Shown here piece after piece: positions 11,606 through 39,304 of a stretch of 39,304 bases of DNA. The translations under genes were made by a program, and so were the position numbers. The stretch is taken from the NCBI GenBank assembly GCA_964387625.1, contig CAYLWN010000002.1, forward strand, positions 39,120 to 78,423, in the 5' to 3' direction. Within the stretch, counting starts at the first letter, position 1; every line of letters begins with the position of its first letter. This DNA is from an uncultured Gammaproteobacteria bacterium. GTDB lineage: Bacteria; Patescibacteriota; Microgenomatia; UBA10105. The notes below the pieces were generated by a model. The model was given only the letters and a program-made list of their open reading frames with translations, searched no databases and had not been told where the DNA came from.

Positions 11606-12613
11606 ATGACAAATTTATTTACTTATATTGATGATTTTTTGGAATTTTTAGAAGTTGAAAAAAATGTATCTCCATTAACCATCCGAAACTACAAACATTA
11701 TTTGATGAGATTTGCCAACTGGTATAAAGAATCCTCTCCCCTGCCTGCGCCTGACTGCCTGCCTACGCAGTCAGGCGTAGGCAGGCAGTCAGGCCTTTCA
11801 GGTGTCTCTCAAATAAATTCTGACACGATCAGACATTACAGATTATATTTAACCAGGTTAACAGATACACATAATTTGACTCTTAAAAGAGTGACCCAGA
11901 ATTATCATTTGATTGCACTGCGGGCTTTTTTACGGTTTTTAGTCAAGAAAGATATTAAAACTTTGGCTCCCGAAAAAATTGATCTAGGCAAGACAGAATC
12001 GCATAGTTTGAAATTTTTAAATAAAGATCAATTAACACGTTTGGTTAATCAACCGGATATAGCTACTGTTTTCGGCTTGAGGGATAAAGCGATACTGGAA
12101 TTATTATTTTCTACAGGTTTACGGGTATCAGAACTGGTGAAACTAAACCGTGATCAAATAGATTTTACGACACGGGAAATCGGTATTATCGGTAAAGGTG
12201 GTAGAGCCAGGGTGGTATTTATTTCAGACGCCGCATCAAAGTGGTTGCAACGATATTTAAGTTATAGAGAAGATAAATACAAACCTTTATTTGTCCGTTA
12301 TTCAGGAAAAAAAGTTACCAAAGATCAAGGCGAAGAAGGAATCAGGTTATCAGCCAGAAGTATTCAAAGATCTGTTGAAAAATATGTAAAAAAAGCTAAA
12401 TTGCCTATCAAAATTACTCCTCATGGGTTACGGCATACATTTGCCACGGATTTGTTGACAGCAGGAGCTGATATCAGGGCCATACAAGAAATGTTGGGAC
12501 ATAAAAATATTTCCACTACTCAAATATATACACACGTTACCAATCCGCAACTTAAACAAATCCATAAAAAATTCCATGGAAAAACTGAAATAGTTGAAGA
12601 TGCAATTAAATAG
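11606..12613 (+). CDS. XerC/XerD-like tyrosine recombinase with an 18-codon palindromic insertion
   Basis: SAM-like N-domain. Catalytic motifs TGLRVSEL, GKGGRAR, TPHGLRHTFAT and LGHKNISTTQIYTH. Confidence 0.95.
   Translation: MTNLFTYIDDFLEFLEVEKNVSPLTIRNYKHYLMRFANWYKESSPLPAPDCLPTQSGVGRQSGLSGVSQINSDTIRHYRLYLTRLTDTHNLTLKRVTQNYHLIALRAFLRFLVKKDIKTLAPEKIDLGKTESHSLKFLNKDQLTRLVNQPDIATVFGLRDKAILELLFSTGLRVSELVKLNRDQIDFTTREIGIIGKGGRARVVFISDAASKWLQRYLSYREDKYKPLFVRYSGKKVTKDQGEEGIRLSARSIQRSVEKYVKKAKLPIKITPHGLRHTFATDLLTAGADIRAIQEMLGHKNISTTQIYTHVTNPQLKQIHKKFHGKTEIVEDAIK
11740..11793. repeat. 54-bp compound CCTG...CAGG palindrome in frame in xer
   Basis: Perfect 20-bp IR 11749-11768/11775-11794, with an alternative 19-bp IR 11740-11758/11767-11785 (1 mismatch). 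Confidence 0.9.
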
Positions 12614-12617
12614 ATAG

Positions 12618-13367
12618 ACAGGTCGGACCTGTTATGGAGATGGATGTGATGATATAAATTAAATTTTTATCGTATATGCCGGCAAAAAATTCTATAAAAC
12701 AATACGTTGAAAATAGCTTCTATCATATTTACAATCGGGGCGTTGATAAACGAATAATTTTTATTCAGGATTTAGATTATCAAATGTTTCTTTCATATTT
12801 AAAAAATTACTTGTCAACATTGTCTTTACAACAGGTCCGGCCTGTAAGAAAATCCACTCTTTTTTTAGAAATTGATTTAATCGCTTATTGTCTGATGCCA
12901 AATCATTTTCATTTATTGATTAAACAAAAATCAGCCAAATCAATAATTAAATTTATGCGTTGTTTAACAAATGCATACACGCGATATTTTAATACCAGAC
13001 ATAAAAGAATTGGTCATTTATTTCAAGGAAAATATAAAGCAAGTTTAATAACAGAAGATTTATATTTACTACAACTATCTCGTTATATACATAGAAATCC
13101 ATTAGAGTTATTCAGGTCAGACCTGCATAAAATATTGTCAGAATACCCTTATTCAAGTTATAAAGATTTTTTAGGATTAAGAAACACTGTTTGGGTGAAG
13201 CCAAATGAAGTATTAAATTTTTTTGCATTAGATAAGCAAAAAAATAATTTAGATTTAAATTATCAAGGTTTTGTTGAACAATTTAATAAAGACGAAAATG
13301 ATATAAACGAATTTATCTTAGAAGACAATGTCGAATGATAACAATCTAAACAACAGGTCCGATCTGT
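12618..13367 (+). mobile_element. RAYT module: Y1 transposase bracketed by inverted 15-bp palindromes, with two more copies inside the gene
   Basis: ACAGGTCGGACCTGT (12618-12632), ACAGGTCCGGCCTGT (12831-12845), CAGGTCAGACCTG (13113-13125) and ACAGGTCCGATCTGT (13353-13367). Confidence 0.8.
12676..13338 (+). CDS. REP-associated tyrosine (Y1/HUH) transposase, IS200/IS605 TnpA superfamily
   Basis: YHIYNRG, AYCLMPNHFHLL (HUH), YFN...GHLFQGKY, YIHRNP (catalytic Tyr) and YPYSSY. Confidence 0.92.
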   Translation: MPAKNSIKQYVENSFYHIYNRGVDKRIIFIQDLDYQMFLSYLKNYLSTLSLQQVRPVRKSTLFLEIDLIAYCLMPNHFHLLIKQKSAKSIIKFMRCLTNAYTRYFNTRHKRIGHLFQGKYKASLITEDLYLLQLSRYIHRNPLELFRSDLHKILSEYPYSSYKDFLGLRNTVWVKPNEVLNFFALDKQKNNLDLNYQGFVEQFNKDENDINEFILEDNVE

Positions 13368-13407
13368 TTAGTTTTGTTTAGACAATTTATGATAAAATGT
13401 TGATCTT

Positions 13408-24140: not shown

Positions 24141-25196
24141 ATGGATATCAAGCAACTACTAGATTTAACAGCTACTAGGTTAGCGTCAGATTTACATTTA
24201 TTAGGCGGATATCCGCCAATCATAAGAATTGATGGAGTCTTACAAAGAGTACCCGGTGAAGAGGTTTTAACCAGTGACCAAATAACTACCTTTATATATG
24301 ATTTGTTTAATTCCGAACAAAAGGATTTATTTTTGGCCAATAAAGAAATTGATTTTTCTTATGCTTTGGGAAATGCAAGATTTAGAGTCAATGCATATTT
24401 TGAAAAAAATAATATTGCTGCTGCATTTCGTTGTTTACCGCAAAAAATCCGCACTATAGAAGAACTTGCCCTGCCGGAAATTTATCATGATTTTGTCAAT
24501 TTAAAACAGGGATTTATTTTAGTAACTGGACCAACAGGTCATGGGAAATCAACCACATTAGCAGCAATTCTTAATGAAATTAATCAAAATCGTGATGCAC
24601 ATATAGTGACGATTGAAGATCCGATAGAATATATTTATCCTAAAGGGAGATCAATTATATCGCAAAGAGAAATGCATACTGACACGCATTCATGGAACGT
24701 AGCGCTTCGTTCTGTCTTACGTGAAGATCCGGACGTAGTGCTAATAGGAGAAATGCGTGATTATGAAACTATCGCTGCTACCTTAACCATTGCCGAAACA
24801 GGACATTTAGTATTTGCCACGCTTCACACAAATTCAGCGTCCCAAACCATTGACAGAATTGTTGACGTTTTTCCCGAGAGACAACAAGCGCAAATAAAAC
24901 TACAACTAGCAGGAACCTTGGAAGCGGTTTTATCTCAAAGATTATTACCCGGTATTGGGGGTGGAAGAAAACCTGCTACAGAAATTCTTATTTCCACTCC
25001 AGCTGTGCAAAATTCTATCCGTGAGGGAAAAACTCATTTAATTGACAATATTATTCAAACATCTGCTGATATGGGAATGGAACTTTTGGAAACTTCTTTG
25101 GCCAGAATGGTCAAAAATGGTGCTATAACACTTGAAACAGCTAAAGAGTATTCAACCAGACCTGAAGAATTAATCAGATTATTTTCAACAAGTTAA
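24141..25196 (+). CDS. pilT: Type IV pilus retraction ATPase PilT
   Basis: ASDLHL, RFRVNAY, GPTGHGKSTT, SQRE, LREDPDVVLIGEMRD, AETGHLVFATLH and AVQNSIRE. Confidence 0.96.
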   Translation: MDIKQLLDLTATRLASDLHLLGGYPPIIRIDGVLQRVPGEEVLTSDQITTFIYDLFNSEQKDLFLANKEIDFSYALGNARFRVNAYFEKNNIAAAFRCLPQKIRTIEELALPEIYHDFVNLKQGFILVTGPTGHGKSTTLAAILNEINQNRDAHIVTIEDPIEYIYPKGRSIISQREMHTDTHSWNVALRSVLREDPDVVLIGEMRDYETIAATLTIAETGHLVFATLHTNSASQTIDRIVDVFPERQQAQIKLQLAGTLEAVLSQRLLPGIGGGRKPATEILISTPAVQNSIREGKTHLIDNIIQTSADMGMELLETSLARMVKNGAITLETAKEYSTRPEELIRLFSTS

Positions 25197-25200
25197 AATA

Positions 25201-25278
25201 CCAGATTCTAGATTATAGATTCTTGATTCTAGAAAAAATAAATATTATAAAATCTATAATCCAGAATCCAGAATCTAA
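25201..25278. repeat. Inverted 7-bp arrays (nnAGATT)n ... (AGAATCC)n
   Basis: ccagatt ctagatt atagatt cttgatt ctag ... aaaatct ataatcc agaatcc agaatct. Confidence 0.8.
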
Positions 25279-35960: not shown

Positions 35961-36857
35961 ATGATCATTTTTATTATCGGATTTATTTTTATAATTGGAC
36001 TGTTTATCGGTTCATTTTTAAATGTGTTGATTGATAGACTGCCTCTTGAAAAAAATCCCTGGAAAGGCAGAAGTAAATGCGATTTTTGCAATCATTCGCT
36101 ATCTCCTCTTGATTTGATACCAATATTTTCATTTATAATACTTGGCGGTAAATGCAAGTATTGTCATAAAAAGTTATCATTCCAATACCCATTAATTGAA
36201 ATATTAACAGGGATTATGTATGTGAGTATTTTTGTTAATATTTCAAAATTATCAAACGTTCTAAATCCCTTCGACTTTGCTCAGGGAATAAAACTAACTG
36301 TCTTAAGTCTTCCTGTTTTATTGTCATATTTGTCTTTATTAGTCATTTTCTCTTCCTTTCTCGTTATCTTTGTTGCAGATGTCAAATATCAAATCATTCC
36401 TGATGAAATGCTGGTGAGTTTGGGAGTTGGAGTATTGTTGATGCTGGTAAGCAAGATTCCCGCTTTCGCGGGAATGACAATTAGGGGGGAAGATTCTTCG
36501 TTGGCATTCAGAATGACAACGGGGATGTTTAGAATAGCGATCCCCTATTTATTATCAGGTTTAACAACCGGTTTATTTTTCCTAACTATTTATTTAGTCA
36601 CAAAACGTAAAGGTATGGGGTTTGGAGACGTAAAATTAGCTCCACTTTTAGGATTATTTTTAGGATTTCCAAAAATAATTGTTAGTCTTTATATAGCTTT
36701 CTTGACAGGTGCAATTTTTTCAATCATACTGATTATATTAGGCAAAAAAGAGTGGAAAAGTAAAATTGCCTTTGGACCATTTTTGATAATCGGAGCGAGT
36801 TTAAGTTATTTTATCGGCGATTTAATCACAAAATGGTATATGAATTTTTTTCTATGA
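35961..36857 (+). CDS. pilD: Prepilin peptidase with REP-derived in-frame insertions
   Basis: GSFLNVLIDRLP, RSKCDFC, GKCKYC, YPLIE, D..YQIIPD, GMGFGDVKL and IAFGPF. Confidence 0.95.
   Translation: MIIFIIGFIFIIGLFIGSFLNVLIDRLPLEKNPWKGRSKCDFCNHSLSPLDLIPIFSFIILGGKCKYCHKKLSFQYPLIEILTGIMYVSIFVNISKLSNVLNPFDFAQGIKLTVLSLPVLLSYLSLLVIFSSFLVIFVADVKYQIIPDEMLVSLGVGVLLMLVSKIPAFAGMTIRGEDSSLAFRMTTGMFRIAIPYLLSGLTTGLFFLTIYLVTKRKGMGFGDVKLAPLLGLFLGFPKIIVSLYIAFLTGAIFSIILIILGKKEWKSKIAFGPFLIIGASLSYFIGDLITKWYMNFFL
36267..36290. repeat. CTGAGC/GTCGAAG-family REP (reverse) inside pilD
   Basis: cccttcgactttgctcagggaata, encoding PFDFAQGI. Confidence 0.7.
36454..36518. repeat. Two tandem GTCAT-family REP halves inside pilD
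   Basis: agattcccgctttcgcgggaatgaca (36454-36479) and agattcttcgttggcattcagaatgaca (36491-36518). Confidence 0.85.
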
Positions 36858-37897: not shown

Positions 37898-37929
37898 ATT
37901 GTGAAGAAATACATTAAAACTTATTTGTT

Positions 37930-38385
37930 ATGCAAGTAATCAAATTTGGTAAAAATAACCAAGGTCAAGCCTTGCTAGAAGCAATTGTGGCTTTTGGAGT
38001 AGTTGCATTGGTTTTGGTGGCTTTGATTTCCGCAATTACTGTATCACTGGCAAATGCCCAATATGCCCGTAATAAAGCTCAAGCTACAAAATATGCTCAG
38101 GAAGCCATTGAATGGTTGCATCAACAAAGAGATACACAAACTACCGGTTGGTCAGGTTTTTACACAAAAGCAGGCGCAACATATTGTGTCAATAATTTAA
38201 GCAATTATTCCAGTATGACTGCTTCTTCATGCAGTACAAATATGACTGGTACAATTTTTGAAAGAGAAATGACTTTAACAGGAAACGTAGCAAGTGATAA
38301 AGTTACAGCTTTAATTAATGTTACATGGACTCAAGGAGCAAGAACTGCAAAAGTAGATTTAGAAACGGTTTTAACAAAATGGTAA
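37930..38385 (+). CDS. Minor pilin (PilV-like)
   Basis: QG|QALLEAIVAFGVV, ATKYAQEAIE and VTW. Confidence 0.85.
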   Translation: MQVIKFGKNNQGQALLEAIVAFGVVALVLVALISAITVSLANAQYARNKAQATKYAQEAIEWLHQQRDTQTTGWSGFYTKAGATYCVNNLSNYSSMTASSCSTNMTGTIFEREMTLTGNVASDKVTALINVTWTQGARTAKVDLETVLTKW

Positions 38386-38395
38386 TTTTTAACAC

Positions 38396-38458
38396 GTCAT
38401 TCCCGACCTGATCGGGAATCTTATTAATTTTTAAGATCCCCGCATTCGCGAGGATGAC
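38396..38458. repeat. Intergenic REPIN-like doublet (GTCAT family)
   Basis: gtcattcccgacctgatcgggaatct (38396-38421), a 12-nt AT spacer, then agatccccgcattcgcgaggatgac (38434-38458). Confidence 0.88.
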
Positions 38459-38485
38459 AATTATTAGTTTAGTTTTGTAATTGAT

Positions 38486-39097
38486 ATGAAGATGCTAAGA
38501 TTTATGAGAAATTCAATAATCCAGAATCCCTGCCTCGCCGGCAGGCAGGCAGAATCCACCCGCCTGCCATCGCTATGCTCAAGCATTAGCGGGCAGGGAA
38601 TCACTAGAGTTGGTTTTACCTTGGTTGAGACTTTGGTTACACTTGTTTTAATAGGAACAATTGGTTTAATTGCTTCAATTTCTTTGTTTAATTTGTTATC
38701 AGGAAGTGCAAAAACCGAAATTGTTAAAGAAATCAAACAAAATGGAGACTACGCCTTATCAACAATGGAGCAAAATATTAGAAATGCAACTGATGTGTAT
38801 TATTTAGTAGGAGGTGTAAAAACATGTGCAGGTACATCTATCGACCTTTACATTATTCAACCTTCACAACCTGCAACACCGATTCATTATTCCTGTTCTT
38901 CTGGAAGTTTATATGTTGATGGAAATAGTTTGACTAGTGATAAAGTTGTCGTTAATCCCTGCACAGGAGTTTTTACCTGCAATAAGGATGTTAATGGTTT
39001 ATATAAAAATGTAATTATTAATTTTGTTTTGGAAGACGCACAAAACTCATCTGTCAGTCAGACATATAAAACAGAAATCAGGTTGCGAAATAAGTAA
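38486..39097 (+). CDS. Minor pilin (PilW/PulJ-like) with a leader lengthened by two palindromic insertions
   Basis: VG|FTLVETLVTLVLIG, IRNA and C-terminal LRN. The start could be ATG 38504. Confidence 0.88.
   Translation: MKMLRFMRNSIIQNPCLAGRQAESTRLPSLCSSISGQGITRVGFTLVETLVTLVLIGTIGLIASISLFNLLSGSAKTEIVKEIKQNGDYALSTMEQNIRNATDVYYLVGGVKTCAGTSIDLYIIQPSQPATPIHYSCSSGSLYVDGNSLTSDKVVVNPCTGVFTCNKDVNGLYKNVIINFVLEDAQNSSVSQTYKTEIRLRNK
38529..38597. repeat. Two CC(T/C)G...CAGG elements (21 bp and 39 bp) within a (CCAGAAT)3 array
   Basis: cctgcct-cgccggc-aggcagg (38529-38549) and cccgcctgc-N21-gcgggcagg (38559-38597). Confidence 0.92.
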
Positions 39098-39099
39098 AA

Positions 39100-39161
39100 C
39101 CCTTCCATACGCTACTCTTACTTAGGGAATAAGATACTATTGTCTGAGCGTAGTCGAAGAC
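39100..39161. repeat. Pair of CTGAGC/GTCGAAG-family REP units
   Basis: Degenerate cccttccatacg...cttagggaata, then gtctgagcgtagtcgaagac (39142-39161). Confidence 0.6.
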
Positions 39162-39304
39162 TTATCATAAAAAATTTCACTTATTATTAATTTAAAAGCT
39201 AATAATATCGCATTAATGAATACCTGTAAATCATACTTAAAAGATTTTTTAGAAATATATTTTAAATCACTTTTCATCCAATTATCAAATGAATTTTGAT
39301 GATA

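Follow-up and report, generated by a model that had tools for sequence, protein, structure and literature searches.

Two miniature hairpin repeats split a heptamer array in the leader of a type IV pilin-like gene

How can a pilin leader be broken twice by GC-rich hairpins and still be read through in frame? The question is raised by a window of 39,304 nucleotides, positions 39120-78423 of contig C2 of a metagenome assembly (G000; 1.24 Mb in 86 contigs, 33% GC, about 90% complete), whose sequence is present in groundwater and soil metagenome runs. On its plus strand, at 38486-39097, lies an open reading frame (ORF) for a type IV pilin-like protein (minor pilin) of 203 aa, the leader of which is encoded in part by a seven-base array of CCAGAAT units. 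This array is interrupted by E1, a 21-nt GC-rich hairpin repeat (CCTGCCTCGCCGGCAGGCAGG; 38529-38549, read here as PCLAGRQ), and by E2, a 39-nt hairpin repeat (CCCGCCTGCCATCGCTATGCTCAAGCATTAGCGGGCAGG; 38559-38597). We consider it probable that E1 and E2 are non-autonomous miniature palindromic repeats that inserted into the heptamer array of the pilin leader. Below, G000 denotes the genome under study, G001, G002, G004, G005 and G020 its relatives, and L-numbers fetched loci; the genomes closest to G000 belong to other genera, with 40-43% protein identity for the pilin.

The array survives in three pieces on the same strand, 38521-38528 (CCAGAATC; ccagaatc), 38550-38558 (CAGAATCCA; cagaatcca, the 9 nt between E1 and E2) and 38598-38604 (GAAT followed by CAC). 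Taking E1 and E2 out of 38521-38604 leaves exactly three CCAGAAT units and then CAC, and the element-free leader would be MRNSIIQNPESRITRVG|FTLVE. The original prediction had described a (CCAGAAT)3 array split by inserts of 21 and 39 bp that lie 9 nt apart at different phases of the heptamer, and its coordinates, the rejoining, the FTLVE leader and the two phases were all confirmed. The ORF stays in frame through both elements, since their lengths are multiples of three and E1 is stop-free in all six frames. Candidate start codons are found at 38486, 38492 and 38506; because none lies between E2 and the cleavage motif, both elements must be translated within the leader. Prepilin cleavage is predicted between G43 (38612-38614) and F44, where G|FTLVE begins at 38612 and leads into a hydrophobic helix, and homologues align from about query residue 41 (the G|F motif) onward. 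The ends of E1 and E2 are set independently by their families: those of E1 are fixed by 13 identical G000 copies with unrelated flanks and by a comparison of filled and empty sites in G004, and those of E2 coincide with termini that its family conserves. The cut points were thus not chosen freely so that the array would rejoin in phase; the chance of each such rejoining is about 1 in 7, and that of each in-frame length 1 in 3.

E1 occurs in G000 in 13 exact copies, with two more at one mismatch and one at four (16 matches within four mismatches), and its DNA fold has an energy of -5.9 kcal/mol (z -1.5). All 13 exact copies lie within open frames of at least 209 aa, where they are read in three forward frames and one reverse frame, and 12 of them are sense-oriented. 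Besides the pilin, the hosts are mutually unrelated: WecG/TagA, TsaD (two copies), a RecG-like helicase, a PMT_2 glycosyltransferase, ArgRS (two copies), GatB, Fpg and an ATP-dependent DNA ligase, together with two ORFs without a family, one of which (C8:10146-11207; tentatively Nnr-like) includes a stretch of N in the assembly and was excluded from the Pfam search. A cross-phylum scan for exact matches, with one genome per species, gave at least 119 contig stretches with E1 against about 0.3 expected by chance, by our own estimate. The matches listed include many Patescibacteria lineages, Bacteroidota (among them the cultured Arenibacter, Zunongwangia and Aequorivita), Gammaproteobacteria, Elusimicrobia, Omnitrophota, Planctomycetota, Ignavibacteria and Acidobacteriota. 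Only three viral contigs carry E1, which makes phages no obvious main carrier. Within the order, for which we counted 87 genomes and used the reversed pattern as a control, E1 is patchy (22 of 87 genomes, 0-14 copies, reversed control 0) and reaches bursts of 14 copies in G004 and 13 in G000.

E2, too, is one of a family, in which the ends CCCGCCTGCC...CGGGCAGG are constant and the inner stem varies while its pairing is kept. G000 holds four copies. E2 copies usually lie between short inverted flanks of the GTTC|E2|GAATC kind, and the pattern is found in 22 of the 87 genomes of the order (reversed control 0). The E2 DNA folds at -11.6 kcal/mol (z -3.35), with 0 of 200 shuffles as good. E1 and E2 have 6-bp CCTGCC/GGCAGG terminal inverted repeats in common, and the same hairpin ends are seen in related 18- and 20-mers. 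These observations establish E1 and E2 as real miniature mobile palindromes, members of multi-copy families that are patchy among relatives. E2-like sequences (3-5 differences over 37-39 nt) were also noticed in 2.4-8 kb contigs of metagenome runs X5, X7, X8 and X10, with flanks that differ from the window and are less AT-rich where shown; these contigs are probably from other organisms.

The manner of insertion can be read from G004, which belongs to a different genus of the same family as G000 and has a 1.4-Mb genome. A host repeat with 49 matches is present there in 37 empty copies (..GTTC|CGGCC..) and 12 filled ones (..GTTC|E1|CGGCC..), the latter with 10 exact E1 and 2 variants at one or two mismatches, and filled and empty sites differ by exactly 21 nt at one point, without any duplication. 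Similarly, in Flavobacteriaceae a common palindrome, GCTTTCGCGAAAGC, of which ten uninterrupted copies were seen in six fetched loci, is interrupted by E1 in two distinct positions, and here too nothing is duplicated. The insertion of E1 adds exactly 21 bp and leaves no target duplication. Its junction is strand-asymmetric, with a pyrimidine on the 3' side: of 130 distinct E1 copies pooled from all sources, 113 are followed by a pyrimidine (73 by C and 40 by T), 15 by A and 2 by G, and 64 are preceded by C. Precise insertion free of a target-site duplication (TSD), as originally claimed for the pilin leader, is supported by the G004 sites and also fits the in-frame lengths and the intact ORFs at all 13 E1 sites of G000. 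The G004 host repeat itself (..TATAGCCTACATACTTGAATTTGTTC CGGCCATATACCCCTCTAAGCTGC..; for example L185-L198) is apparently non-coding; about a quarter of its copies hold E1, and none was found in G000.

Seven-base arrays are a conspicuous feature of G000. Using Tandem Repeats Finder at a score of at least 40, we counted 86, 61 and 16 arrays of period 7, 14 and 21 against 0, 12 and 0 in a third-order Markov simulation; periods 6 and 8 gave 3 and 18. The units are diverse, with 68 canonical units in 195 arrays, and 157 of 220 arrays lie outside long ORFs, though 84% of random segments fall inside; about 29% of arrays are in genes. E1 adjoins a period-7 array in 8 of its 13 G000 copies against a background of 1.86% (binomial 1.7e-11). 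Over the 130 pooled copies, the heptanucleotides on either side of E1 match exactly in 11 and with no more than one mismatch in 28, where shuffled pairing yields 0.18 and 0.80, and flank repeats of 5, 6, 8 or 9 nt are found in only 0-4. Further heptamer units stand beside 24 of these 28 copies, which marks them as arrays, not simple duplications. In the loci from other phyla, arrays away from E1 are also mostly of period 7, 14 or 21 (120 of 149, in 45 loci). E1 sits in period-7 arrays far more often than chance would place it there.

The leaders of relatives bear on the order in which array and hairpins arose. The G004 ortholog, which has the same upstream gene end, has a leader MTKLTTYNLQPTTNS encoded by (CYTACAA)4 without any hairpin; that of G005 comprises (AATCAGT)2, a 20-nt CCTGCC hairpin and then GTCAGAA ACCAGAA; G020 has a long heptamer array in its pilin leader, and G001 and G002 have short leaders without arrays. 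A metagenome scan with the mature pilin gave one close match (L132) and 37 distant ones. L132, a contig from another metagenome, has a leader identical to that of the window with both elements present. Of 36 distant metagenome pilin loci, 5 carry a strict array of period 7 no more than 150 nt from the motif, against 2 of 253 control windows, and no other period scores; as L148 and L149 are near-identical, this amounts to four independent cases. That leader arrays recur without hairpins in relatives favours an array older than E1 and E2 here. The pilin loci L137, L147, L148/L149 and L135 have heptamer arrays in or just before the leader, examples being MKHNFQFSIFNFQTEERG|FTLVE from (AATTTTC)4, and (TTCATCA)4 followed by a small GC hairpin that abuts the cleavage site.

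For strain variation we inspected contigs of four metagenome runs (X5, X7, X8 and X10) over 37900-39300 at shallow depth. These contigs cover E1 with its left flank and break at 38557-38559; none spans 38558-38720, and no joint is seen. One X10 contig (depth 5.4) carries T>C at both 38520 and 38527, 7 nt apart, with E1 present, and these paired changes suggest that neighbouring heptamer units changed in concert in another strain.

The events that we propose for the leader would begin with the array, into which E1 and E2 then inserted. The 20 extra residues would be harmless, because PilD cuts away the whole leader. Class III signal peptide features are present in the ORF (the GFTLVETLVTLVLIGTIGLIA motif in its translation, the hydrophobic helix and a PilD in the cluster), and PilD, a prepilin peptidase, is encoded upstream at 35961-36857 on the plus strand (A24_N_bact 2.9e-30, Peptidase_A24 8.2e-13). 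The pilin-like ORF is the last gene of this type IV pilus cluster, which comprises PilB, PilT, PilC, pilins and the prepilin peptidase; the ORF itself gave no match in a Pfam scan, with N_methyl not reached at E <= 0.001, and N_methyl is matched by the ORFs neighbouring it. E1 and E2 may move as single-stranded hairpins by means of a trans-acting, strand-specific enzyme. The preference for arrays might arise in either of two ways: slipped or looped array DNA could expose single strands, or array-to-array copying could spread a resident E1. Once interrupted, the array should no longer undergo unit slippage, which would otherwise be frame-shifting for the pilin.

The best candidates for such an enzyme would be Y1 (HUH) proteins resembling IS200 transposases or the REP-associated tyrosine transposases (RAYT; REP, repetitive extragenic palindromic). 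One RAYT-like gene of 220 aa lies in the window at 12676-13338 on the plus strand; it matches PF01797 above the cut-off at 47.8-48.8 bits, and its best NCBIfam match is the REP-associated tyrosine transposase NF047646 at 46 bits, below the cut-off of 80. It is bracketed by ACAGGTCGGACCTGT-type hairpins at 12618-12632 and 13352-13368, and similar ones lie inside the gene. G000 has three PF01797 genes above the cut-off, this being the one in the window; the context of the others includes contig C64. Among the genomes of the order, a Y1 gene is present in 21 of 22 that are E1-positive and in 45 of 65 that are E1-negative (Fisher p 0.019, computed over relatives that are not independent). Y1_Tnp-like genes of about 200-280 aa are found in 66 of the 87 genomes overall, with up to 14 matches in the roughly 0.8-Mb genome G070. 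A search of G000, at about 90% completeness, gave no TnpB gene (PF07282).

Several observations weigh against insertion of mobile hairpins into the array as the account of this leader. The three RAYT-like genes are flanked by ACAGGTCGGACCTGT or AGGGTCGGACCCT hairpins and not by E1 or E2, which leaves their link to the two elements as a lead, and Y1_Tnp is common even in the genomes without E1. Between pairs of CCTGCC-type hairpins we saw no transposase-like ORF among the translations, which were read by eye; the genes there look ordinary (ComEC/ComEA-like, LeuRS, surface proteins; assigned by eye with no family search). The E2 family shows no array preference, with one of 24 copies in an array. 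The bias of E1 towards coding sequence is local to G000, as there is no coding or strand bias elsewhere: the 124 copies tallied outside G000 are 34 sense, 29 antisense, 55 non-coding and 6 both. At the pilin locus, neither the shallow run contigs nor the single close metagenome match include an allele with no or one element. Moreover, the nearest genomes represent other genera at about 40% identity, so that the ancestral state of the leader is inferred, and at this identity relatives do not offer an empty site of the same locus at the DNA level. The original suggestion that the target is the periodic array rather than a fixed junction sequence thus stands for E1 in a statistical sense (8 of 13 copies against 1.9%, 28 of 130 against 0.8 expected) and falls short as a general rule, given the roughly 100 of 130 E1 copies outside arrays, the 3' preference for C or T, the single phase shared by all five E1 copies in CAGAATC arrays, and the behaviour of E2. 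Nor are other families enriched at arrays (TCCGCC 16-mer 2 of 36, 18-mer 0 of 9, the CCTGCCTGCCGGCAGG core or 20-mer 1 of 10). A broader set of 206 GC hairpins, loosely defined, showed hardly any periodicity in two tests, as their ends did not coincide with element ends; the family-specific tests reported here took the place of these.

The composition of the flanks raises the strongest alternative, namely that heptamers and E1 arrived together as one module (NANAATC-E1-CAGAATC-CAGAATC) with no prior array in the leader. CAGAATC flanks E1 in the unrelated pilin, RecG, TsaD and WecG genes, and two of its units invariably follow E1 on the 3' side. Another context, AAATATC/AAAAACACAAAT, is common to Fpg, DNA ligase, GatB and a fourth gene. 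Such shared flanks suit joint transfer of array and hairpin no less than they suit targeting. Such a module could spread by copying from a same-unit array through gene conversion, template switching or slippage in heptamer register, and no transposase would be needed for spread within the genome. Several finds suit this route: TsaD of G000 contains a tandem 35-nt duplication made of E1 and two units, ArgRS and an unrelated 1538-aa ORF have a 43-nt E1-bearing composite in common, most E1 copies of G004 ride within the one 49-copy host repeat, and in the strain variant two bases 7 nt apart have changed in concert. However, the filled and empty sites of G004 differ by E1 alone, the orthologous leaders of G004 and G005 already hold arrays of other units, most G000 arrays are without E1, including some of the NAGAATC kind, and about 100 of 130 E1 copies lack adjoining heptamers. 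We therefore regard composite arrival as unlikely, although it deserves to be kept in mind, and prefer insertion into an existing array.

At the TsaD site, too, arrays occur apart from E1. The E1 pair sits in a loop that is variable in every relative, where other heptamer arrays without E1 (AACTTTA; NNGTTCA x5; CTCACNA), other GC elements, or, in two relatives, nothing are found. TsaD of G000 (C20:7801-9153, L229) has 451 aa against 322-397 aa in 11 relatives, and its excess length consists of several separate inserts, including GTCAT..GGGAATC-type repeats translated as SCHFRENGNLKDPRVHA... The 9-nt spacer CAGAATCCA recurs at two loci, between E1 and E2 in the pilin gene and between E1 and the 16-nt TCCGCCAACTGGCGGA in WecG (C33:3776-3784); this constant spacing, in two cases only, could reflect cleavage at a set distance from the E1 hairpin.

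A further reading extends insertion beyond this locus and takes E1 for a pan-bacterial 'nano-element' of 21 nt, or three times seven bases, with precise, strand-specific and duplication-free integration, which uses heptamer arrays as a preferred landing pad or carrier and, together with them, reshapes the loops and signal peptides that essential proteins have in small-genome bacteria. We put this forward tentatively and think it rather less likely than not to hold in full.

It is improbable, in our view, that the hairpins have been retained in the leader for a function, either as an mRNA structure that tunes pilin translation or as a lock against phase-variable slippage. The enrichment of period-7 arrays at the 5' ends of pilin homologues (5 of 36 against 2 of 253) and the fold of the whole 84-nt segment with E1 and E2 (-23 kcal/mol, z -4.35) would be in keeping with such a role, and heptanucleotide repeats are reported to drive phase variation in Haemophilus. 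Yet E1 is not pilin-specific, as in many phyla it also lies within housekeeping enzymes or non-coding DNA, no length polymorphism was seen in the four runs at low depth, and Rfam at gathering thresholds returned no family in the window. We give still less credence to the idea that the heptamers are 7-bp TSDs and the arrays footprints of repeated insertion and excision of E1-like elements. The agreement of the left and right 7 nt of E1 at this length and no other is what such duplications would leave behind, but the reading is already contradicted by the G004 sites, which differ by 21 nt with no duplication, and by the additional units at 24 of the 28 copies concerned. In addition, a gain of 28 nt would shift the frame, yet all 13 G000 copies are in open frames; a pilin leader with a single ancestral heptamer would hit a stop; and identical heptamers in unrelated genes cannot be local duplications. 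Finally, an assembly or sequencing artefact can be set aside, for although the assembly is fragmented and the contigs of four other runs break within the leader, the identical two-element leader of L132 comes from another metagenome, the other-run contigs (one of them the strain variant with its two substitutions) cover E1 and its left flank, and E1 is found in cultured isolates of other phyla.

Other parts of the window contain related sequences. An uninterrupted CCAGAAT array had been predicted at about 25261; two perfect units are indeed present (25261-25274), and the rest is a degenerate run. These two units are the 3' arm of paired heptamer arrays in inverted orientation at 25190-25277 (GATTCTA-type, then CCAGAAT x2) in the spacer between pilT and pilC, the products of which were assigned by Pfam; a perfect four-unit CCAGAAT array is found elsewhere in G000, on contig C23. 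The spacer upstream of the pilin gene holds two GC hairpin repeats at 38396-38461, GTCATTCCCG..CGGGAATC and its inverted relative GATCCCCGC..GAGGATGAC (fold -13.3 kcal/mol, z -3.7), whose relatives elsewhere often have a 16-nt TCCGCC..GGCGGA hairpin nested in the loop. Directly past the pilin stop, 39098-39165 (aacccttccatacgctactcttacttagggaataag..gagcgtagtcgaagac) resembles a short repeat type seen elsewhere in G000. At 11733-11795 on the plus strand, a 63-nt GC-rich palindromic insert composed of CCTGCC/GGCAGG and CCTGACTGC modules interrupts, in frame, the region coding for the N-terminal domain of a XerC/D-like recombinase (ORF 11606-12613; Phage_integrase 1.5e-45).

A mobile DNA of 21 bases is near the lower limit of what can be recognised and moved, and the presence of an identical E1 in Patescibacteria, Bacteroidota, Proteobacteria, Planctomycetota and other groups suggests that they share a mechanism or that transfer is frequent. 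E1 offers a defined substrate for finding the mobilising enzyme, and its link to arrays offers a testable handle on heptamer repeats, which were described in cyanobacteria. If the 'nano-element' reading is true, the identity of E1 across phyla would imply conserved trans-acting machinery, possibly the abundant RAYT-like Y1 enzymes, and a mechanistic link between hairpin elements and the arrays of the cyanobacterial type. For annotation, such elements lengthen both housekeeping proteins and signal peptides in streamlined bacteria by in-frame residues and break assemblies at repeats; recognising them improves gene models and protein alignments.

How do E1 and E2 compare with known systems? A search of the literature, with subscription papers and supplements outside its scope, returned no description of the E1, 20-mer and 16-mer strings or of such elements. 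Similar in size are the small dispersed repeats (SDR) of Nostoc and related cyanobacteria, which Elhai and colleagues reportedly described in 2008 (Genome Res 18:1484) as repeats of about 21-27 nt, argued to be mobile and nested in other repeats, in genomes rich in heptamer arrays. SDRs and E1/E2 are alike in size and nesting; E1 is one exact 21-mer over many phyla, whereas SDRs are said to be confined to one cyanobacterial clade. The short tandemly repeated repetitive (STRR) heptamers of heterocystous cyanobacteria are described as dispersed 7-bp arrays that are mostly intergenic and often hairpin-forming (PMC2670836). The arrays of G000 likewise are dispersed, of 7 bp, in strong excess and mainly outside long ORFs (157 of 220); they differ in belonging to another phylum, a groundwater small-genome bacterium, in their unit diversity (68 units in 195 arrays), in the roughly 29% that lie in genes and in their association with a 21-nt hairpin. 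STRRs reportedly also lie inside the RNase P RNA gene (Vioque 1997).

Among palindromic elements, the Rickettsia palindromic elements (RPE) are repeats of about 150 bp known from Rickettsia only, inserted in frame in housekeeping genes with the ORF kept (PMC10969869). E1 is likewise in frame in TsaD, RecG, GatB, ArgRS, Fpg, DNA ligase and WecG, but it is 21 nt long, and E2 39 nt, and both occur across phyla, so that neither the size nor the host range of RPE applies. REP elements are characterised as GC-rich imperfect palindromes of 20-40 nt with a GTAG or CGTC tetranucleotide at one end (PMC3733652). E1 and E2 resemble them as short multi-copy hairpins (13 and 4 copies) in a genome with RAYT-like Y1 genes, and these genes are bracketed by small hairpins of their own, as in REP/RAYT systems. 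In contrast, the elements lack a GTAG/CGTC tag (E1 has CCTG...CAGG, E2 CCCG...CAGG), they are not extragenic in G000, where 13 of 13 E1 copies are in ORFs (elsewhere 55 of 124 are non-coding), and the Y1 genes are flanked by ACAGGTCGGACCTGT or AGGGTCGGACCCT rather than by E1 or E2 as their cognate repeats.

Classical miniature inverted-repeat transposable elements (MITE) have terminal inverted repeats and flanking direct repeats, the TSD, and a length of about 50-500 bp (PMC10969869). E1 and E2 have a terminal inverted repeat of 6 bp, but no TSD, and at 21 and 39 nt they are shorter. Members of the IS200/IS605 family insert without a TSD and in a strand-asymmetric manner. The insertion of E1 is alike in both respects; it differs in that there is no fixed tetra- or pentanucleotide target, only a one-base preference, and no TnpB was found in G000. 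Nor does the leader behave as a phase-variable contingency locus, as its array is interrupted twice and the four low-depth runs gave no indel variant. Membership of the REP, MITE, RPE or IS200/IS605-derivative classes thus fails in each case on at least one defining feature. The byp elements of Magnusiomyces mitochondria and the GC clusters of yeast mitochondria are short and GC-rich in an AT-rich genome and also lie in coding regions, the byps being skipped by the ribosome. E1 and E2 are similarly GC-rich within an AT-rich genome, but they sit in a bacterial chromosome, in frame and stop-free, and need no bypass.

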